Assembly (NCBI GenBank): GCA_964403045.1
Contig: CAYOEP010000001.1
Location: 9,009 to 73,008, forward strand
Reading direction: 5' to 3'
DNA: 64,000 nucleotides
DNA from: an uncultured Candidatus Saccharibacteria bacterium
GTDB taxonomy: Bacteria > Patescibacteriota > Minisyncoccia > UBA6257 > 2-01-FULL-56-20
Shown: positions 426-48,868 of the stretch, piece after piece
How the letters are laid out: the number at the start of each line of letters is the position of its first letter
Numbering within the stretch: position 1 is the first letter of the stretch
The notes under the pieces: model-generated
Told to the model about the DNA's origin: nothing
What the model saw: the letters and a program-made list of their open reading frames with translations, nothing else
Database searches by the model: none
Program-made: the position numbers and the translations under genes

Positions 426-1094
426 TCATTGAACCACTAGACAGGTTCCCCCGGTACGCGACAATTTCACACAGCTTGTACAGGCGTTAGCTTCATTCAT
501 GCAAGCACTCATGGCCTTTTGGGGGCAAGGGGGAAGGGAAGGACAAGAAGCACATGGGCGGGTAAATGCTTCGTCATGAGGAGTTCTCGAGCGTACTTTA
601 CGACAAACAATCACATCTCTTTTTGTAGTATGCACGGTACCACTCATAAGCCATTGTTCGATGTCGTGGGGCACGCCACGCGCCTCGAGTTTTTGGACTG
701 CTGGGTTTTGTAGTTTTGCAATGTCGGGGTTGATGGTGTTGAAGATAAGAGAGGCTCCTACTAAGAGAAGTATTCCAGTGATTGCGCTCTTGATTCTGTC
801 TTTGGCGTCGGACTGCTTTGAGGCGTTGCCTGCCGAAACACTGTACTCAATAGCAGCAATTACGACGGCGCCGAAGGCGAGGAGCCCAACTACCGCGAGC
901 GAGAAGTTATAGAGGTTGCGGACAGTTTCCGCAGGAGTGTTCCCGCTTTCTCCCTCGGGAGTAGGGATGTACATTTTTACGTTAACCGCGTGCACTACTT
1001 GAAATGTAGAGAATATAGAAGCAATGAAGCCGATAATTAAGGCAAGCACAATGATGTTGCCGTTGCTACACTTAACCTTGGGAAGATTTGGCAT
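426..1094 (-). CDS. TrbC/VirB2-like T4SS pilin paralog with a Cys-rich C-terminal tail
   Basis: Two hydrophobic helices and the motif AIEYSVSAGNASKQSDAKDRIKSAITGILLLVGASLIF. The same motif recurs in the four pilin paralogs at 47122-48868 (SGG/AGD-x-EK...L.YAA...L.A). The C-terminal ~90 aa tail carries many Cys. The true start may be an internal Met. Confidence 0.55.
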   Translation of the reverse strand: MPNLPKVKCSNGNIIVLALIIGFIASIFSTFQVVHAVNVKMYIPTPEGESGNTPAETVRNLYNFSLAVVGLLAFGAVVIAAIEYSVSAGNASKQSDAKDRIKSAITGILLLVGASLIFNTINPDIAKLQNPAVQKLEARGVPHDIEQWLMSGTVHTTKRDVIVCRKVRSRTPHDEAFTRPCASCPSLPPCPQKAMSACMNEANACTSCVKLSRTGGTCLVVQ

Positions 1095-5290: not shown

Positions 5291-5794
5291 TTAATAATCT
5301 ACCCGCTTCGCGATCTTGCGTTGTCCTGAAATGTCTTCGAGAACTTCATAGCGCTCTTGCTGGCTTGCTGCCGCCTGCTTCTTTTGGGAGGAAGATTGCA
5401 GTTTGTGCCACGCCTGCTTGAGGGCAGTGCCGTAGATAATTTGGTCGAGGGCAATCCCGCTTTTCTTAGCTTCCTCCCGCAGTGCATCTTTCGATTTTTG
5501 CATATGGGGCTGATCCGGCTTCCACACGTAGGTTTGTGGGTTCCAGATGAAGAAGAACGCGGAGAGGAGGACTTTTGGGAGTTCGCGGCCATTGATTTTG
5601 ATGAAAGCAAGGGCGCCGGCAGCAGAAACGAGCACAAGGGAAATCATAAACCATGTCCCCATATTGCCGAGGAAAAAGAAGAGGAAAAACGAAATCACGC
5701 CCGCAGAGCCCACGTAGAGGAACTGCTTGAGCGTAAAAGGTCCGATGATTTTGTCTTCGGTTTCTATGAACTGGGGAACTTGGAATTGCGCCAT
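5291..5794 (-). CDS. PrgI-family (VirB3-analog) small membrane protein
   Basis: The N-terminus FQVPQFIETEDKIIGPFTLKQFLYVGSAGVISFFLFFFLG followed by a second TM is typical of PrgI-like proteins of Gram-positive-type T4SS. Confidence 0.6.
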   Translation of the reverse strand: MAQFQVPQFIETEDKIIGPFTLKQFLYVGSAGVISFFLFFFLGNMGTWFMISLVLVSAAGALAFIKINGRELPKVLLSAFFFIWNPQTYVWKPDQPHMQKSKDALREEAKKSGIALDQIIYGTALKQAWHKLQSSSQKKQAAASQQERYEVLEDISGQRKIAKRVDY

Positions 5795-26061: not shown

Positions 26062-26137
26062 GCGCCTGTAGCTCAACGGTGAGAGCAGCCGTCTTATAAG
26101 CGGCAGGTTCCTGGTTCGAATCCAGGCAGGCGCACCA
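26062..26137 (+). tRNA. tRNA-Ile (anticodon TAT)
   Basis: Acceptor GCGCCTG/CAGGCGC, D-stem GCTC/GAGC, anticodon stem GCCGT/GCGGC with loop CTTATAA (TAT at positions 34-36), T-loop TTCGAAT, discriminator A, CCA encoded. Confidence 0.65.
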
Positions 26138-30716: not shown

Positions 30717-31559
30717 GTGAAGGGGAGTATGAGAAAGAAAAGAGCTGGATTTCTCAATGTAATAGCAGGAGTAGTGGTGGCGATCGTTGCCCTCGGGATG
30801 GTTGGTGTCTATGTTGCGAGGAATGTTGCGTTCCAAAGCAAAAGCGCAAGTAGCCAACCTGCTTCTCGCTTGGGCGCGGGCACGAATGAGCATTCTGGAG
30901 TCAACAAGCTTCCCCTCCAGGGGAGCAGCAAGAAAGAGCCACCAGCACTGGCAATCAAAATACTTTCTCCTCGTGAAGGAGAAAAGTGGCGCGCGGGCAG
31001 CGCCCACACAATTCGGTGGATGGCGCCCTCGGAAAAAGTGCGCGCGGTCAATATTTCCGTGGAGTTTACAGTTCTTTGTCCCGAAGTCGCCTCATCGGAC
31101 TGCAAGACGGAGAGAAAATCTCTAGAGATTGCGCGCGGTGTACCAAATAGCGGTTTCTACGACTGGAAAGTGCGTCAGGTAGGTGCGTTTCCGAAGATTC
31201 ATATTGAAGGCTTGTCGGAAGCAGGCGAAATGCTCGCCCGCGCGACGAGTGGTGAGTTTAAGATTCTCTCGCCCCCGCAAACGGTAGTAGTGGAGATAGG
31301 TAGCACGGATGTGGTTCCGGCTACAGCGTATCTTCGCGAGGGAGATGCGGTGCAGTTTTTCAATAATGGAAAAAGGGTAGTGCACCTTACCTTCCAAGCG
31401 CGCACCGAAAGCCCGATCCCTCCAGGGCTGGAGCAGCCGATAGCTATCCCTCCTCATGAGTCGTATATCGCTACATTCCCGGTGGCAGGGGAATGGAAAT
31501 TTTGGGACCCTGCGGATGCAAATATTCAGGGAATGATTGTCGCTCGCAAGGAAGGGTAG
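30717..31559 (+). CDS. Membrane-anchored extracytoplasmic protein (hypothetical)
   Basis: N-terminal TM (FLNVIAGVVVAIVALGMVGVYVA), then a beta-rich region with two Cys. Confidence 0.4.
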   Translation: MKGSMRKKRAGFLNVIAGVVVAIVALGMVGVYVARNVAFQSKSASSQPASRLGAGTNEHSGVNKLPLQGSSKKEPPALAIKILSPREGEKWRAGSAHTIRWMAPSEKVRAVNISVEFTVLCPEVASSDCKTERKSLEIARGVPNSGFYDWKVRQVGAFPKIHIEGLSEAGEMLARATSGEFKILSPPQTVVVEIGSTDVVPATAYLREGDAVQFFNNGKRVVHLTFQARTESPIPPGLEQPIAIPPHESYIATFPVAGEWKFWDPADANIQGMIVARKEG

Positions 31560-31661
31560 GCGCGTAGCCCGGCTTTTGTGGCAGTGGCGAGCGGGGTGCT
31601 CGCGTGCGGTTTTTCTGGAGAGTGGACAGAGGAGAAGAGAGTGTGCTACAATAGGCGCGCT

Positions 31662-32426
31662 ATGGAACAACATTCATCACCGTCCGCAGCAAGCGTATAC
31701 GCGCTTCCCGCCGCGATTGTGCTTGCGGGCGCACTTATTGCGGGAGCAGTGCTCTACACAGGGGCACATTCTTCATCTCCTGCCCTGACAGGAAATGTCG
31801 CCGCAGTCGCGGGGACTGCAGGAAAAACGGCAGGGCAAAGAGGCGCCCCCCAGCCTTCCCCATCTCCAGCGCTAGACGGCTTGCGGAAGGTTACGAAGGC
31901 GGACCATATACGAGGCAGTGTCAGCGCGCCGGTAAAAGTTGTTGAATTCTCTGATATGGATTGTCCTTTCTGCGCCCGGTTTCATCCCACGATGCAGCGT
32001 ATTATGCAGGAGTACAAGGGGAAGGTTGCATGGGTTTATCGCCACTACCCACTTGATAGCCTGCACCCTGGTGCCCGCCCCGCGGCAGAAGCAGCAGAAT
32101 GTGTGGCGGAGCAGAAGGGCAATGACGGTTTTTGGCAGTATGCGGACAAGTACTTTGCAGCACGGTCTTCCGGCCAGCAGCCTGACCTAGATAAGCTTGC
32201 TATGGAAGTTGGCGTCAATATGGATCAGTTCTCGAAGTGCCGCAGTTCACGGAAATATGCAAAGCGGGTACAGGAGGACGCGGACGATGCGACGGCGTCG
32301 GGCGCGCGGGGAACGCCCTACAGCGTGGTGATTGCGCCGAACGGGCAGAAGTTTTCGTTGAACGGCGCGCAGCCCTATGAAGCAGTACGCCGGATGATTG
32401 ACGCAGCACTCAAGCTTACGAAGTAA
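31662..32426 (+). CDS. dsbA: DsbA-family thiol:disulfide oxidoreductase (membrane-anchored)
   Basis: The CPFC active site (DMDCPFCARFHP) in a thioredoxin-fold context, with an N-terminal TM. Confidence 0.8.
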   Translation: MEQHSSPSAASVYALPAAIVLAGALIAGAVLYTGAHSSSPALTGNVAAVAGTAGKTAGQRGAPQPSPSPALDGLRKVTKADHIRGSVSAPVKVVEFSDMDCPFCARFHPTMQRIMQEYKGKVAWVYRHYPLDSLHPGARPAAEAAECVAEQKGNDGFWQYADKYFAARSSGQQPDLDKLAMEVGVNMDQFSKCRSSRKYAKRVQEDADDATASGARGTPYSVVIAPNGQKFSLNGAQPYEAVRRMIDAALKLTK

Positions 32427-32992
32427 TGAGAAAAAGAATTTCCGCATTGCGGAAAATATTGCGAACACCCCGTTACGCGGTAGCGGCGGGAGGGCTTGCC
32501 GCGGCGCTGTTTATTTTTCTCGCGTTAATGAAAAACTTTCGCGTGCTAGGGGAAACAGCGTCTTCGCCCGCATTTTCATTTTCTGAGTGGCTTGGACTTG
32601 TGTGGGATTTGCTGCGGGGAGGAGTAATGAATTTGGGGTGGTTTGGATTGTTGCTGTCAGGAACGATGTCGATGCTGTTCGGGATCAATATCGCAGTGCT
32701 GTGGTATGTGCGCGCGGCGAACAAGAAACTTCGGGCGAAAGGAAGCACCGCGGCACTGGGCGGCACGATTGCGGGAATTTTGGGAGTGGGATGCGCATCT
32801 TGTGGGTCCATTCTTCTTACTTCAATCCTTGCTTCATTCGGCGCGACGGGGCTGATTGCCCTGTTTCCGTTGCGGGGGCAGGAATTTGCCATTGCGAGCA
32901 TCGTCCTTCTGCTGATTTCGCTCTCCGGGCTCCTGAAAAGCGCTGCGCTCCCGCCGGGAGTATGTGCGGTTCCCTCGCGGAAATCGGTATAG
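32426..32992 (+). CDS. Four-TM membrane protein with intramembrane CxxC (putative redox partner of DsbA)
   Basis: GVGCASCGS lies inside the predicted TM3; the start overlaps the dsbA stop. Confidence 0.45.
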   Translation: MRKRISALRKILRTPRYAVAAGGLAAALFIFLALMKNFRVLGETASSPAFSFSEWLGLVWDLLRGGVMNLGWFGLLLSGTMSMLFGINIAVLWYVRAANKKLRAKGSTAALGGTIAGILGVGCASCGSILLTSILASFGATGLIALFPLRGQEFAIASIVLLLISLSGLLKSAALPPGVCAVPSRKSV

Positions 32993-33019: not shown

Positions 33020-34672
33020 GTGGATATTGCGCAAGAAATTCGCGGCATTGTTCGCGGCGAGGTTACCTCGCGAGAAGAAGATTTGCAGCATTACAGCAGG
33101 GACGCGAGCTTATTTCGGGTCACTCCTTCGCTGGTGGTCTTCCCTCGTGATGCTGCAGACATTAAGGCGCTGGTGCACTTCGTGGCAGCCCACAAGCGGC
33201 GAATGCCTTCGTTATCGCTGACCGCCCGCGCCGCAGGCACAGATATGACCGGCGGCCCCTTGTCAGATTCTATCGTGGTGGATACTACAAAGTACTTGCA
33301 CCACTTGAAAGAATTGAATGCGGAGAAGAAGTATGTGGTGGTTGAGCCGGGCCTTCCCTACCGCGAGATGGAGCGGGAAACTTTAAAGCATCATCTTATT
33401 TTCCCCTCTTACCCTGCCTCGAAAAACCTTTGCGCGCTTGGCGGAATCGTGAACAACAATTCCGGCGGCGAGCGCTCCCTTGTGTACGGCAAGACTGAGG
33501 ATTATGTAGAGTCGGTCAATATGGTGCTCGCGGACGGGAACGAATACCAGTTTGCCAAATTGTCCCGCAGGGAGTTGGAGAAAAAAATGCGGCAGCAAAA
33601 TTTTGAGGGGAAAGTATATCGTGAGATGTTCCAGCTTGTGGAGGAACACTATGAAGAAGTAAAACGCGCCCGTCCCAATGTTTCCAAAAATTCTACCGGC
33701 TACAATATTTGGTCAGTATGGGACGGGGAGCATTTTGACCTCAGTAAAATTTTTGTGGGAGCGCAGGGAACGCTCGGCATTATGACGGAAGCGCGACTTC
33801 GGCTCGTTCCCACAAGGCCCTATCGTGGAATGCTAGTGGTATTCCTGAACGACTTCCGCAATGTGGGCGAGGTGGTGACGGCAGTGCTGCCGCACAAGCC
33901 CGCCGCGTTCGAATCATTCGACGATCATACCCTGCGCCTCGCACTCAAGTTTCTGCCGGAATTTATGCAGCTCCTCAAGCCAAAGAACCTTTTCGCGCTC
34001 GCGCTCCAGTTCCTCCCGGAATTTCTCATCATCCTCCGCCATTTGAAGATGCCGAAGCTCGTGCTCCTCATTGAGTTTGAAGGGAAAAGCCACCATGAGG
34101 TGATGGAGCGCATTGAGGACACGAAGAAGTCGCTGGAAAAGTTTCCCGCAACGGTGCGGGTGGCGGCGAACAGGAAAGAATCGGAGAAGTATTGGGCAAT
34201 TCGGAGGGAGAGCTTCAATCTCCTCCGCCGCAAGGTGCGAGGGAAGCATGCGGCTCCATTTGTGGACGACATTATCGTGCGCCCCGAATTTCTCCCCGAA
34301 TTTCTCCCCAGGCTTTATGCGATTCTCGACCGCTATCAGCTGCTCTACACCATCGCAGGGCACGTGGGGAACGGCAATTTCCACATCATCCCCCTTATGG
34401 ATTTGAGGCAAAAATCGGAGCGGGAAAAAATCCCCCGAGTGTCGAAGGAAGTTTACAAATTAGTACTCCACTATGGCGGGTCGCTTTCCGCAGAGCACAA
34501 CGATGGGCTTATTAGAGGACCCTATCTGCAGCAGATGTACGGCCGTAAGGTTTTTGATATGTTCGTGCGGGTGAAAAAGATTTTTGATCCGCAAGGGATT
34601 TTTAATCCCAGAAAGAAAACGGGAGCAAGCCTGCGATACGCAATGGCGCACATTCGCAAGGACGAGCCCTAA
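33020..34672 (+). CDS. FAD-linked oxidase (GlcD/D-lactate dehydrogenase-like)
   Basis: PCMH-type FAD-binding N-terminal domain (VVFPRDAADIKALVHFVAAH...ARAAGTDMTGG...VVDT) and a C-terminal FAD-oxidase domain. Confidence 0.8.
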   Translation: MDIAQEIRGIVRGEVTSREEDLQHYSRDASLFRVTPSLVVFPRDAADIKALVHFVAAHKRRMPSLSLTARAAGTDMTGGPLSDSIVVDTTKYLHHLKELNAEKKYVVVEPGLPYREMERETLKHHLIFPSYPASKNLCALGGIVNNNSGGERSLVYGKTEDYVESVNMVLADGNEYQFAKLSRRELEKKMRQQNFEGKVYREMFQLVEEHYEEVKRARPNVSKNSTGYNIWSVWDGEHFDLSKIFVGAQGTLGIMTEARLRLVPTRPYRGMLVVFLNDFRNVGEVVTAVLPHKPAAFESFDDHTLRLALKFLPEFMQLLKPKNLFALALQFLPEFLIILRHLKMPKLVLLIEFEGKSHHEVMERIEDTKKSLEKFPATVRVAANRKESEKYWAIRRESFNLLRRKVRGKHAAPFVDDIIVRPEFLPEFLPRLYAILDRYQLLYTIAGHVGNGNFHIIPLMDLRQKSEREKIPRVSKEVYKLVLHYGGSLSAEHNDGLIRGPYLQQMYGRKVFDMFVRVKKIFDPQGIFNPRKKTGASLRYAMAHIRKDEP

Positions 34673-45817: not shown

Positions 45818-47125
45818 ATGCCGTTTGGCTTAACACAAAAACAGCTCGCCATTGTGCTCATCGGGGCTATTCTAGTGGGAGGCATTGGCTTTTTCCTCTA
45901 CATTAACATGGGCGGTAAGCGTAATAGCAGCGGCGTGCCGGGAGGGGATGTTATCGAGTTAACAGCATGGGGCCCCTTTCCTGAAGCGATGCTTAAGGAC
46001 GCAATCGATAGTTTTGATGGCGCCAAAATTATCTACACCCAAATCGAACCTTCGAAGTATAAGAAGAAGCTTTTGGATGCGCTTGCGGCAGGCAAGGGGC
46101 CGGATATCTACATGGTGGATAGCCGCGCGCTTCCTCAAGAGCTGGAGAGGATTGTGTCTGCTCCCGGCGGGAAGATTACGCCGGTAGAAGTGCAGCAGCT
46201 TTTTCCCGATGTAGTAACGCACGATTTTGTATATGAGTCAGAAGATGGCACTCCAAATATTTACGGGCTCCCGCTCTACCTTGACACACTTGCCCTTGTC
46301 TACAACAAAGATATTTTCAACCAAGAAGCCGTCCTCCGTCCTCCTGCTACTTGGGAGGAATTCCAGCAGGTCGTGCAGCATCTTCGTAAACTTAATCAGT
46401 ACGGGCAAATTACCCGCGCCGCCGCCGCGATAGGGGGCTCAAAGAAAAGCATCGCAAACGCGGTGGATATTTTAAACCTCTTGATGCTGCAAAATGGCAC
46501 AAAATTTGTGGACGAAAAGACAGGACACGCGGTTTTTGCTGGAGGCAGGGCTGGGGAAGAGGCGTTGAACTTCTATCTTCAGTTTGGCAACGCGGGATCC
46601 CCCTACTACACCTGGAATGATCTGCAGGGCGACTTCCTCCAGCGGTTTGTGGACGGAAAAGTGGCGATGATTTTTGCCTATAAGTCGCAGGTAAACGACA
46701 TTCTCGCCCGCGCCCCGTTCCTCAATTTTGCAATTGCCCCTGTGCCGCAGCCGGAAGGGAGGGAAGTGGACGTCAACTATCCTTCCTATTGGGGACTTGT
46801 AGTCTCATCGCAAACGAGGGAGCCGGAGGTGGCATGGGACTTTGTAGTGCACGCGGCAACAGACGAGGACGCTGCACAAGCAAGAATTACCGCTACCAAC
46901 TTGCCCCCCGCACTCAAATCGCTCTATGAGCCTTTGCTGAATGATCCTAGCTACTACGCGTTCGTACAGGAGGCACTGACGGCGAAATCGTGGCACCAGC
47001 CGGATGAAGAGCTCGTGCAAGAGATATTTTCTACAGCAATGCAGCGTGTGCTTGCGGGGAAAACGGATGTGCAGGGGGCGCTGCAGGAGGCTGAGGAGAA
47101 ATTGAACGAGGAAGTACTACAATGA
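45818..47125 (+). CDS. ABC transporter extracellular solute-binding protein (family 1, sugar-type), membrane-anchored
   Basis: N-terminal TM anchor and an SBP_bac_1-like pattern (GPDIYMVDSRALPQE...MIFAYKSQVND). Confidence 0.7.
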   Translation: MPFGLTQKQLAIVLIGAILVGGIGFFLYINMGGKRNSSGVPGGDVIELTAWGPFPEAMLKDAIDSFDGAKIIYTQIEPSKYKKKLLDALAAGKGPDIYMVDSRALPQELERIVSAPGGKITPVEVQQLFPDVVTHDFVYESEDGTPNIYGLPLYLDTLALVYNKDIFNQEAVLRPPATWEEFQQVVQHLRKLNQYGQITRAAAAIGGSKKSIANAVDILNLLMLQNGTKFVDEKTGHAVFAGGRAGEEALNFYLQFGNAGSPYYTWNDLQGDFLQRFVDGKVAMIFAYKSQVNDILARAPFLNFAIAPVPQPEGREVDVNYPSYWGLVVSSQTREPEVAWDFVVHAATDEDAAQARITATNLPPALKSLYEPLLNDPSYYAFVQEALTAKSWHQPDEELVQEIFSTAMQRVLAGKTDVQGALQEAEEKLNEEVLQ

Positions 47126-47595
47126 AGATAATGCATAGCTGGAAAAAAAAGGTATTTCCGACCTTTGTCGCCCTCGCCACAGGAATTCTGGTTGCCCGCC
47201 CCGCGAGTGCCCACAGCATTGGGCTTCCGTACTGGCCTTCCAAGAGTAACCCAATCGTGCCGTGCAGTGCGTTGGGAACTGGTGGAAGGCCGGCTTGCAC
47301 CAGCTGGTGCGATCTTATTCACCTTGCCCAGCACGTGATTTATTTTCTGCTCACGCTTGCTATCTTTATCGTCGGACCGTTTATGATAGGGGTAGGAGGC
47401 ATTATGCTGATGATTTCGGCGGGCGCTCCGGAGCGGATGGCGCAGGGCAAGAAGGTGCTCACCGGTGCGGTAATTGGAATGCTGATCGGGCTGTTTTCCT
47501 ATCTCATCGTGGGTACCATTTTCTTCCTTATTGGGATAACATTTGGATGGAGGGGAAGCAACGGCAACTGGTCGTCAATACAATGTAGAGTATGA
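47122..47595 (+). CDS. TrbC/VirB2-like pilin paralog 1
   Basis: Signal peptide, a Cys-containing segment, and two TM helices around the motif ISAGAPERMAQGKKVLTGAVIGMLIGLFSYLIV. Confidence 0.6.
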   Translation: MKIMHSWKKKVFPTFVALATGILVARPASAHSIGLPYWPSKSNPIVPCSALGTGGRPACTSWCDLIHLAQHVIYFLLTLAIFIVGPFMIGVGGIMLMISAGAPERMAQGKKVLTGAVIGMLIGLFSYLIVGTIFFLIGITFGWRGSNGNWSSIQCRV

Positions 47596-47957
47596 GGAAG
47601 AATCTTTTTCAGTTGAGGTGGTGCCTATCGGTGTTCAGGAGCTATGTGTATTCGCTGGGCATAGTGAGTATTGTGCAAGCAGGCGGGTATGGGTATGGGT
47701 CCTTTAACCTGCCAAGCCCTATCGGCTGTGAGGATTTTGGCTGTGTGGCAGAGAAGATCGCGATTGCCCTAAGCTATCTCGCCGTGCCTATCCTTACGGT
47801 AATGGTGCTTGTGGGCGGCTACCAGATTATGTTTTCCGCGGGCAACCCAGAGAAACTCAAAGCAGGCAAGCGCACAATCCTCTATGCGGCGATTGGCTTC
47901 CTCGTGGTGCTCATTGCCCAGTCGGCACGGCTTATCATTATGAGTATTTTTACTTAA
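47592..47957 (+). CDS. TrbC/VirB2-like pilin paralog 2
   Basis: The motif MFSAGNPEKLKAGKRTILYAAIGFLVVLIAQS lies between two TM helices. The start overlaps the previous stop. Confidence 0.6.
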   Translation: MRKNLFQLRWCLSVFRSYVYSLGIVSIVQAGGYGYGSFNLPSPIGCEDFGCVAEKIAIALSYLAVPILTVMVLVGGYQIMFSAGNPEKLKAGKRTILYAAIGFLVVLIAQSARLIIMSIFT

Positions 47958-48023
47958 TATGGTACAATAAAGAACGTGCATGTGGACATCGAAAGGTCGT
48001 TTATTTAAAATGAGGGCGAGTGC

Positions 48024-48443
48024 ATGAGACTAAGCAAAGAAAAATTTATAGGAATCTTTCGAGAAGGTGTAATAAAAGTAATTGTTCCAGTTACAATTAC
48101 TGTAGCAGGGCTTTGGCGAGCGCCTCTTGCTTATGGCCTACTAGCAGTGCGCAATGATGCGCCGCAGCTTAAAGTGCGGGACTGGAAAGGTATAGAAACT
48201 ATGCTTTGTAACTTTGCGGATACAATGGCGGTGCTCTTCTTTGTGGTTGCTGTAGTGTTTACATTAGTTGCGGCATATCAGTATCTTGTATCAGGGGGTG
48301 ATACCGAGAAAGTTAAGAAGGCGTCCAAGACTCTCACATATACAGCAGTAGCGGTAGTGGTGGCGTTGTTGGCGTTCGCATTTCCACGAATAGTCTTTTC
48401 TATTTTTGGGGGTGGTAGAATGAATGATGCGTGTGCGAGTTAA
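48024..48443 (+). CDS. TrbC/VirB2-like pilin paralog 3
   Basis: YQYLVSGGDTEKVKKASKTLTYTAVAVVVALLAFAF. Confidence 0.55.
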   Translation: MRLSKEKFIGIFREGVIKVIVPVTITVAGLWRAPLAYGLLAVRNDAPQLKVRDWKGIETMLCNFADTMAVLFFVVAVVFTLVAAYQYLVSGGDTEKVKKASKTLTYTAVAVVVALLAFAFPRIVFSIFGGGRMNDACAS

Positions 48444-48484
48444 CTTATATCAGTATAAATTGAGATCAAAGGTCGAAAAAGTGT

Positions 48485-48868
48485 GTGCAGCAAAAAACTA
48501 TGCGTAAGGTTGTAAAAGGGATGGCAAGTATCGCAGCGTTAGTAGTTCCGGTAGTAGCGCTCGCGGCTGGGAATGCAGGCGGGCCTAACCCTGTTCCTGA
48601 CTCTCCCATCAAAACCATTTCAGGTGCGCTCCAGCTTCTCTGTAGGATTTTTGCGTGGCTGTTTACCTTCTTCATCGTCATTGCCGTCATCTTCGTGTTG
48701 CTTGCTGCGTGGAAGTATCTCACTGCGGCAGGTGATGCGGACAAGGTGAAGTCAGCGAACCAGAGCTTGATTTATGCCGCGGTTGCGGTTGGCGTGGCGC
48801 TTATCGCAAAGGGAGTCCCCACGATTGTGTCTACATTGATGGGCGGGCAGGACATTACTGCCTGCTGA
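48485..48868 (+). CDS. TrbC/VirB2-like pilin paralog 4
   Basis: Signal peptide (ASIAALVVPVVALAAG) and the motif WKYLTAAGDADKVKSANQSLIYAAVAVGVALIAKG. Confidence 0.6.
   Translation: MQQKTMRKVVKGMASIAALVVPVVALAAGNAGGPNPVPDSPIKTISGALQLLCRIFAWLFTFFIVIAVIFVLLAAWKYLTAAGDADKVKSANQSLIYAAVAVGVALIAKGVPTIVSTLMGGQDITAC

Follow-up and report, generated by a model that had tools for sequence, protein, structure and literature searches.

What does a small membrane protein do when its only CxxC pair lies inside a transmembrane helix and its gene is joined to that of a DsbA-like thiol-disulfide oxidoreductase? The question is raised by two adjoining genes in a 64,000-nucleotide (nt) stretch of DNA from an uncultured Candidatus Saccharibacteria bacterium (GenBank assembly GCA_964403045.1, contig CAYOEP010000001.1, positions 9,009 to 73,008), which we refer to throughout as the window. 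The membrane partner of a DsbA-like protein decides whether that protein oxidises, reduces or isomerises disulfides, and to our knowledge few such partner families have been described, namely DsbB, VKOR and DsbD/CcdA/ScsB. The second gene of the pair encodes a protein of 188 amino acids (aa) with four transmembrane (TM) segments. It belongs to a large, unannotated family that extends across the candidate phyla radiation (CPR), which we call the 4TM family and which looks like a new family in an already known class, that of the proteins that partner DsbA-like proteins in the membrane. The features on which the argument turns are these:

31662-32426, + strand: DsbA-like gene, from the ATG at 31662 to the TAA at 32424-32426; product of 254 aa.
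32426-32992, + strand: 4TM gene, from the ATG at 32426-32428 to the TAG at 32990-32992; product of 188 aa.
32424-32428, + strand: TAATG stop/start overlap, read directly in the sequence; one base, the A at 32426, is common to both genes.
32792-32803, + strand: invariant intramembrane CxxC, C123-A-S-C126, in TM3 (family motif G-x-G-C-A-[AS]-C-G-S).
32963-32965, + strand: codon of C180, a near-invariant cysteine in a P-x-V-C motif about 6-9 residues beyond the cytoplasmic end of TM4.

The TAATG overlap couples the two genes, and homologous pairs elsewhere either overlap or are separated by gaps of 0-13 nt. An earlier note on this DNA had described a membrane-anchored, 254-aa CPFC DsbA overlapping a 188-aa four-TM reading frame at 32426, with the sole CxxC of the latter inside TM3 and a layout matching neither DsbB nor VKOR. 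All of this agrees with what we found, including in the topology, profile and co-occurrence analyses given below; what that description overlooked is the cytoplasmic cysteine C180. The same two reading frames, with identical starts, stand in GenBank as RME59823.1 and RME59824.1, from a metagenome-assembled genome (MAG) of Candidatus Parcubacteria, each under the name 'hypothetical protein'. One public gene call starts the 4TM gene at an internal Met (32672-32992, 106 aa) and thereby loses TM1 and TM2, while another public record gives the full 188 aa.

Judged by its sequence, the upstream gene clearly encodes a DsbA/MdbA-like thiol-disulfide oxidoreductase with a DsbA-type thioredoxin fold, the activity itself being predicted. 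The product matches Pfam Thioredoxin_4 at 2.1e-26 (93.5 bits, with a cutoff of 23.2) and DSBA at 3.5e-17 (63.3 bits). It has an N-terminal hydrophobic membrane anchor, the CxxC motif CPFC at residues 101-104 (nt 31962-31973), a cis-Pro loop (Thr218-cisPro219) and a second cysteine pair, C147/C193, which is a probable structural disulfide. The closest solved relatives are Corynebacterium diphtheriae DsbA/MdbA (4pwp, 7e-16), which has the same CPFC and flanks, and 4n30, followed by BdbD (3eu3) and the ScsC-type 'copper resistance' proteins 6nen/4xvw (~1e-6). With MdbA, Mt-DsbA and BdbD it thus shares the membrane-anchored Thioredoxin_4/DSBA fold, CPFC, Thr-cisPro and second Cys pair; the known partners of those proteins are VKOR or DsbB, whereas the adjacent partner here is a 4TM protein. 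Among 54 partner genes adjoining 4TM family members, CPFC is present in 51, Thr-cisPro in 100% and C147/C193 in 81%. The enrichment of the MdbA-like family in CPR was noted by Meheust et al. 2019 (PMC6744442), who found VKOR adjoining the MdbA-like gene in 88 of the 750 genomes in which the two occur.

A word-indexed search with the 188-aa protein retrieved 12 relatives, and an exhaustive HMMER search with the 4TM family found 847 cluster representatives at E<=1e-3 (clusters at 50% identity, hence a lower bound on family size) and 296 at E<=1e-10. Nearly all members are 170-200 aa long. Exactly one CxxC is present in all 161 retrieved sequences, as CAAC in 78 and CASC in 51, and 112 of the 161 have exactly three cysteines. 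C123, C126, P148 and G151 are invariant in an alignment of 119 sequences, and L84, G86, G120, G122, G127, E153, L162 and C180 are at least 90% conserved. C180 is kept in 149 of 156 sequences; the extra cysteines are scattered, none of their positions being occupied in more than 5/156, and most of them are found in TM1 or the N-terminal tail rather than in an outer loop. The 847 clusters and the invariant motif exclude chance.

In a scan of one genome per species we found 80 loci with the 4TM family, almost all in MAGs of Patescibacteria/CPR, including Parcubacteria, Saccharibacteria, Microgenomates-type groups, Kerfeldbacteria and Magasanikbacteria. Several host MAGs bear the tentative labels Gammaproteobacteria or Burkholderiales. 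One DsbA-4TM pair lies in the MAG of a Pacearchaeota, a DPANN archaeon (locus L076:1046-2335; loci are given here by L numbers), reflecting either CPR-DPANN transfer or a binning error. Every source that names 4TM proteins calls them 'hypothetical protein', and our search of the literature found no published description of the family, only mentions of the DsbA-like partner and of VKOR adjacency in CPR. As far as libraries and literature show, the DsbA partner and its CPR enrichment are already known and the 4TM family is undescribed: it is tied to a CPR-enriched MdbA-like oxidoreductase, yet has no Pfam/NCBIfam model and no name.

The 4TM genes very likely encode partners of the adjacent DsbA-like proteins, because in about 59 of 84 loci the gene immediately upstream, same-strand and only a few bases away, encodes a CPFC DsbA-like protein. 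This synteny set is non-redundant at the species level, and neighbours in it were counted within 4 kb, a distance at which a DsbA-like gene is present in 73/84. Several of the exceptions to an upstream DsbA are 4TM genes at a contig edge. Distant 4TM homologues that were looked up independently lay just downstream of a Thioredoxin_4 gene in four cases out of four. The dependence runs mainly one way: when metagenomes were scanned reciprocally, starting from DsbA, only 20-22 of the 72 loci with enough downstream DNA had a 4TM gene. DsbA genes adjoining a 4TM gene are each other's nearest relatives in 62/75, a label agreement of 83% against 50% in permutations that may be inflated by sampling bias and shared ancestry; these sequence comparisons suggest that the 4TM-linked DsbA genes form a partly separate subgroup. 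L020, L030, L032, L064, L080, L081 and L084 have no adjacent DsbA gene, and where it is missing other thiol-rich extracytoplasmic proteins occupy its place. A single member, in L027, lacks the C-terminal cysteine.

Four hydrophobic segments are evident both in the 188-aa protein and in the family alignment. They are arranged as TM1 (~18-35), outer loop 1 (36-71), TM2 (72-95), a cytoplasmic loop (96-109), TM3 (110-142), an outer loop with the motif LPLxGxEF (143-151), TM4 (152-174) and a cytoplasmic tail. Lysines plus arginines (K+R), averaged per sequence, number 3.25 in the first 17 residues, 3.72 in loop 2 (14 residues) and 3.0 in the tail at the C-terminus, as against 0.42 in loop 3 and 2.28, spread out, in the 36-residue loop 1, and this distribution gives a topology with both termini inside (N-in/C-in). 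In L068:6001-7143, L079:5965-7146, L082:6001-7155 and P0145 the tail is fused to a class-I S-adenosylmethionine (SAM) methyltransferase, which must be cytoplasmic; together with the K+R counts, these fusions place C180 and the tail in the cytoplasm. Since TM3 runs from inside to outside, and forms a helix at 109-142 in the AlphaFold model, the CxxC sits within the membrane in roughly the outer half of this helix, not in the cytoplasm. That model was built from 48 sequences, a first one from 12 having been poor, and has a mean predicted local distance difference test score (pLDDT) of 82.4, exceeding 90 in TM1-loop1-TM2. The conserved polar and cap residues N37, K55, P148, G151 and E153 are grouped together at the outer face.

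The fused methyltransferase was considered as a clue to function and dropped, being a generic, cysteine-free class-I domain whose best PDB match is an uncharacterised Aquifex protein (3dh0); we retain it for topology only. An ArsR-type regulator and a glutaredoxin-like gene lie near the methyltransferase-fused 4TM genes. Other members are extended on the outside. In L038:5165-6316 and L057:5998-7143 a fifth TM comes after the 4TM tail, and then, on the outside, a domain rich in cysteine (SCCSPMNxHRY ... PCCCKCWRWYVYGG) that has no database match; these fusions, too, favour the N-in/C-in topology. Paralogues of ~500 aa (L008:398-2038, L028:3671-5137, L041:3329-4813, L046:2327-3841 and L061:7489-9069) keep the 4TM module, with CPVC or CSVC in a TM helix, P-x-G-G-L-E and a cytoplasmic C..GVCPVP. 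Beyond this module come a fifth TM and, outside, a domain of ~300 aa with YRPCCxNSTxxxDCNHG and a C-terminal GG(G/S)CG(V/T), for which neither Pfam nor the PDB offers a match.

The 4TM protein is not a recognisable member of any of the membrane families with which it was compared. None of the 119 members has a Pfam or NCBIfam match to DsbB, VKOR or CcdA/DsbD at E<=1, and the same Pfam scan recognised genuine DsbB genes in the neighbourhoods above the Pfam cutoff (PF02600, 2.6e-15 to 2.4e-06), as well as nearby DsbD_TM genes. Profiles of the family searched against the PDB returned no chain at E<=10 other than ZorA at E=4.1, which is noise, and no DsbB chain; Foldseek with the 4TM model returned nothing from the PDB below E=0.7, with TM-scores below 0.35. 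DsbB and VKOR are the quinone-dependent membrane oxidases of DsbA/MdbA, and like them the 4TM protein is small, with a four-TM, N-in/C-in core and a coupled DsbA-like neighbour. It further shares with them an outer loop that is long and structured and a CxxC located near where one of the TM helices ends on the outer side. It differs from both in sequence and fold, and its conserved cysteines are C123, C126 and C180 only. It therefore has one Cys pair rather than two, without the two extracytoplasmic pairs of DsbB (PF02600) or the profile match, CxxC at the start of TM4 and loop Cys pair of VKOR (PF07884). It also has an extra conserved cysteine in the cytoplasm and no recognisable quinone-site signature. 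From DsbD/CcdA/ScsB (PF02683, PF13386) it is separated by the lack of homology, with no DsbD_TM or DsbD_2 matches, by having four rather than six or more TM helices, by the placing of its two membrane cysteines on the same helix where those families have one on each of two, and by the third, cytoplasmic cysteine.

In cysteine layout the protein resembles the mercury transporters MerT (PF02411), MerC (PF03203) and MerF (PF11431), in which a helical hairpin has a Cys pair inside its first helix and cytoplasmic cysteine just after its second. In the 4TM family the hairpin is TM3-TM4, with the CxxC in TM3 and C180 after TM4, mostly as one cytoplasmic cysteine and not two. A dedicated thiol partner outside the membrane and a setting among heavy-metal genes are further points in common. 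Homology of the TM3-TM4 hairpin to Mer proteins was entertained on this resemblance by eye and rejected. The 188-aa protein falls in no Pfam family and its NCBIfam matches are noise below threshold, MerT among them at E=0.17, with 12 bits against a cutoff of 150 bits, and 2/119 members give weak MerT, MerTP or MerE matches (E 0.14-0.17) that are no better than those to unrelated families. The family consensus and the paralogue modules have no Mer match in Pfam. Comparison by hhalign gave probabilities of 1-9% for MerT, MerC and MerF sequences, with the cysteines always in register, and 2.4% (P=0.02) for a profile of ~120 MerT sequences whose diversity is low (Neff 1.65), so that very remote homology could have escaped it. 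Because of these probabilities we treat Mer as an architectural analogy only. Further differences are the two extra N-terminal helices with their conserved outer cap and the thioredoxin fold of the partner, as opposed to the heavy-metal-associated (HMA) fold of MerP.

Two features of the neighbourhoods bear on what the pair does. One is the presence of canonical DsbB in the same operons. In L093:3001-5391, L100:3001-5374 and L106:3001-5361 the order is DsbA1(CPFC)-4TM-DsbB(PF02600)-DsbA2(CEAC), with gaps of 2-6 nt or overlaps; in L116:2422-5035 the order of these four genes differs slightly, and L090:2-1673 is a partial copy cut at the contig edge. The DsbB gene overlaps DsbA2 and the 4TM gene follows DsbA1; the CxxC of these DsbB proteins is CVLC or CELC (CVLC in L093, L100 and L106). 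Since a canonical DsbB coexists with it in a single operon, and CPR have conventional DsbA oxidases, the 4TM protein cannot be taken as a mere substitute for an absent DsbB or VKOR, and it and DsbB are not interchangeable. The suggestion in the earlier note of a distinct DsbA-reoxidising partner in place of DsbB/VKOR therefore survives in part: the partner is conserved and distinct, but 'in place of' does not hold in general. A SurA_N/PrsA-like foldase and CopA often follow these four-gene operons, and L102 encodes a DsbB-SurA_N fusion protein. In nine metagenome loci within L092-L106 and L116 (e.g. L100:2529-2936), the DsbA-4TM pair is preceded by a gene for a small two-TM protein (~135-145 aa) that carries a CPFSGHSMSICKMNPMEH-like Cys/His/Met motif and has no Pfam match.

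The other is copper. Neighbour clustering and Pfam assignments reveal a recurrent block of a BlaI-type repressor, an M56/BlaR1-like sensor, DsbA, 4TM, DUF3105, a multicopper oxidase and YtkA. Across the 84 loci, P-type ATPase/HMA genes are found near the 4TM gene in 37, DUF3105 in 23, the M56 sensor in 21, BlaI in 17, multicopper oxidase in 15, YtkA in 11, CcdA-like genes in about nine and CsoR in five; YHS and DUF302 genes are also among the neighbours. The pair is therefore frequently part of copper-homeostasis islands, a context that points to a role other than housekeeping re-oxidation. The BlaI-type repressor and M56/BlaR1-like sensor stand directly before the pair in L014, L019, L022, L024, L029, L033, L044, L045, L048, L056, L057, L059, L070, L071, L075 and L083, and may act as a copper or thiol-stress switch for the DsbA-4TM operon; the sensor in L022 has a Cys-rich outside tail. 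An unannotated membrane protein family with VACCAHH in a TM helix occurs in nine copper-island loci (for example L041:7704-8138, L081:2777-3221 and L087:4854-5321), usually followed by a secreted protein of ~155 aa.

Taken together, we tentatively favour, at somewhat less than even odds, a reading in which the pair is a dedicated, CPR-specific extracytoplasmic/membrane thiol module and the 4TM protein a transmembrane relay that exports reducing power to the DsbA-like protein, a direction that we infer. Reducing equivalents would pass from the cytoplasm to C180, from there to C123/C126, and then to the CPFC of the partner, with C180 acting as a shuttle that gives cytoplasmic reductant access to the buried CxxC. 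The partner, kept reduced, could then serve as a disulfide reductase or isomerase, or as a Cu(I)-handling thiol protein, under copper or oxidative stress in the envelope. Export is the suggested direction because a dithiol relay reachable by cytoplasmic thioredoxin would be driven reductively, and because a separate DsbB oxidase can be present in the operon. The operon with two pairs would mirror the logic of DsbA/DsbB plus DsbC/DsbD, and ScsC/ScsB offers a copper-linked precedent by analogy: ScsC/ScsB and DsbC/DsbD are reductive arms required for copper tolerance in proteobacteria, and the DsbA-like partner here matches the solved ScsC-type proteins. On this reading, the 4TM protein would be a functional analogue of DsbD/CcdA/ScsB with an unrelated and much smaller fold. 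Membrane redox cysteines would likewise link a cytoplasmic reductant to an extracytoplasmic thioredoxin-fold partner (DsbC, ResA/TlpA or ScsC in the known systems), in association with copper tolerance and alongside a separate DsbA/DsbB oxidative pair, although the partner here is a monomer-type, anchored MdbA-like protein and not a DsbC/ScsC oligomer or a TlpA-like reductase.

Several observations weigh against an outward relay. The DsbA-like partner is closest to oxidising enzymes, the C. diphtheriae and A. oris MdbA proteins having the same CPFC and flanks. CcdA-like (DsbD_TM) genes with redoxin partners of their own are found in about nine of the 84 loci, in one case (L008) within the operon itself, so that a second reductant conduit would be partly redundant there. 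For thioredoxin to enter at one lone cytoplasmic cysteine would be unusual. The AlphaFold model is least reliable just around the CxxC (pLDDT 52-66), and no geometry backs C180 reaching C123/C126. Of the CPFC DsbA genes in CPR metagenomes, 50/72 have no 4TM neighbour, and within the window one weak cupredoxin-like gene is all that is left of the copper context.

The opposite direction of electron flow is the obvious alternative. The 4TM protein would then re-oxidise the DsbA-like protein through its outer-side CxxC, in the manner of DsbB or VKOR, and hand electrons to a lipid-soluble or other acceptor. The shared architecture fits, as do a gene order and coupling that are those of DsbA-VKOR and BdbD-BdbC pairs, and a partner that combines the CPFC of the oxidase C. 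diphtheriae MdbA with a probable structural disulfide. Where CcdA and a redoxin supply the classical reductive arm, DsbA-4TM would be left as the oxidative one, and a pilin-like protein encoded elsewhere in the window is a likely disulfide-bonded client. We nevertheless consider this reading unlikely: the family has no second extracytoplasmic Cys pair and no sequence or fold relation to DsbB or VKOR that we could find, it would leave the near-invariant cytoplasmic cysteine without a role, as neither DsbB nor VKOR needs one, and no electron acceptor is identifiable. DsbB sits in the same operon in L093, L100, L106 and L116, with the partial copy in L090, and VKOR adjoins MdbA-like genes in CPR (PMC6744442), leaving no gap to fill in those genomes. 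A variant in which electrons run from CPFC to the intramembrane CxxC, then to C180 and an intracellular acceptor rather than to quinone would make the family a third, structurally unrelated class of DsbA-reoxidising enzyme; we think this quite unlikely, but if true it would be a cofactor-poor route to disulfides, suited to CPR with their minimal respiratory metabolism.

A second alternative replaces electrons with metal. In mercury resistance the ion passes from MerP to MerT, MerC or MerF and on to MerA, and a comparable relay could carry Cu(I), Hg(II) or another soft metal from CPFC through the intramembrane CxxC to C180, or in reverse. Besides the Mer-type cysteine layout, held in the same register in every hhalign alignment, and the copper-island context, this would account for short motif resemblances (GCAAC in MerC; PGEVCAIP in MerT, against PPGVCAVP in the 4TM family), for the ~500-aa paralogues with two cytoplasmic cysteines and an outside Cys-rich domain, and for other Cys-rich fusions or neighbours on the outside, among them PCCCKCWRW, a DUF1573 CGC motif and the VACCAHH membrane protein. 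A metal relay would also be non-redundant with the DsbB and CcdA of the same loci. We hold it to be improbable, since homology to Mer is not demonstrable, and copper genes take the place of MerR, MerP and MerA, none of which was recognised among the recurrent neighbours. The partner retains all the hallmarks of a thioredoxin fold that is active in redox chemistry and lacks additional conserved ligands for metal, there is one cytoplasmic cysteine only, and import of copper would be physiologically counter-intuitive. Very unlikely, finally, is that the 4TM protein does not act as a redox or metal partner at all and is a co-transcribed assembly, anchoring or regulatory protein, or itself a DsbA substrate. 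Members without an adjacent DsbA gene, and the one in L027 without the C-terminal cysteine, would fit such a role; it is at odds with the intramembrane CxxC and cytoplasmic cysteine being the most conserved positions of the family, with a synteny that is very strong and directional across deep CPR lineages, and with the thiol-rich extracytoplasmic proteins that replace a missing DsbA. Returning to the outward relay, no transmembrane thiol relay smaller than the 4TM protein would be known if this reading is true; were the protein an oxidase instead, it would represent a new way of making disulfides. The family is in any case a concrete candidate for the handling of envelope thiols and copper stress in tiny, host-dependent bacteria.

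The immediate surroundings of the pair in the window comprise, in order, tRNA-His, a cupredoxin-like gene, the DsbA-4TM pair, a flavin adenine dinucleotide (FAD)-linked oxidase, dCTP deaminase and serine hydroxymethyltransferase, a reduced version of the recurrent copper-island block. Two upstream features are relevant to its expression and context:

31623-31652, + strand: promoter-like site TGGACA-18 nt-TGnTACAAT, ending 10 nt before the ATG at 31662; a consensus match only.
30717-31559, + strand: context gene; its 280-aa product is membrane-anchored and ends in a weak cupredoxin-like domain (Cupredoxin_1 at E=0.021, short of the Pfam cutoff).

The promoter-like site suggests a short-leader or leaderless transcript that would start the two-gene unit; the promoter-consensus scan found three sites, with 1.5 expected in shuffles. 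We regard the cupredoxin-like gene as a context gene whose membership of the two-gene unit is only putative. Homologues of its product lie near the pair and beside CopA in L011 and L028, and ~3.4 kb downstream of the pair in L079, whose map has no CopA; in L004 a Cupredoxin_1 gene stands between the DsbA-like and 4TM genes. The FAD-linked oxidase gene (33020-34672, + strand; FAD_binding_4 and FAD-oxidase_C) starts 27 nt after the 4TM gene. In L023 (4301-5941) a close homologue (E=1e-180) is directly upstream of the 4TM gene, and another homologue lies 5 kb from it in L027 (1-912), a proximity that could reflect lineage synteny or a functional link. The FAD-linked oxidase was considered as an electron acceptor and dropped, as its recurrence in L023 and, more distantly, L027 is too rare.

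Elsewhere in the window are genes resembling pilins of type IV secretion systems (PF18895), at 426-1094 (- strand) and as four tandem copies at 47122-48868 (+ strand). The protein encoded at 426-1094 has a C-terminal tail with nine cysteines and is the likely DsbA client referred to above. A PrgI-family gene lies at 5291-5794 (- strand). ARAGORN also identifies a tRNA-Ile with anticodon TAT at 26062-26137 (+ strand), a tRNA that is uncommon in bacteria, where AUA is usually decoded by a lysidine-modified CAT tRNA.

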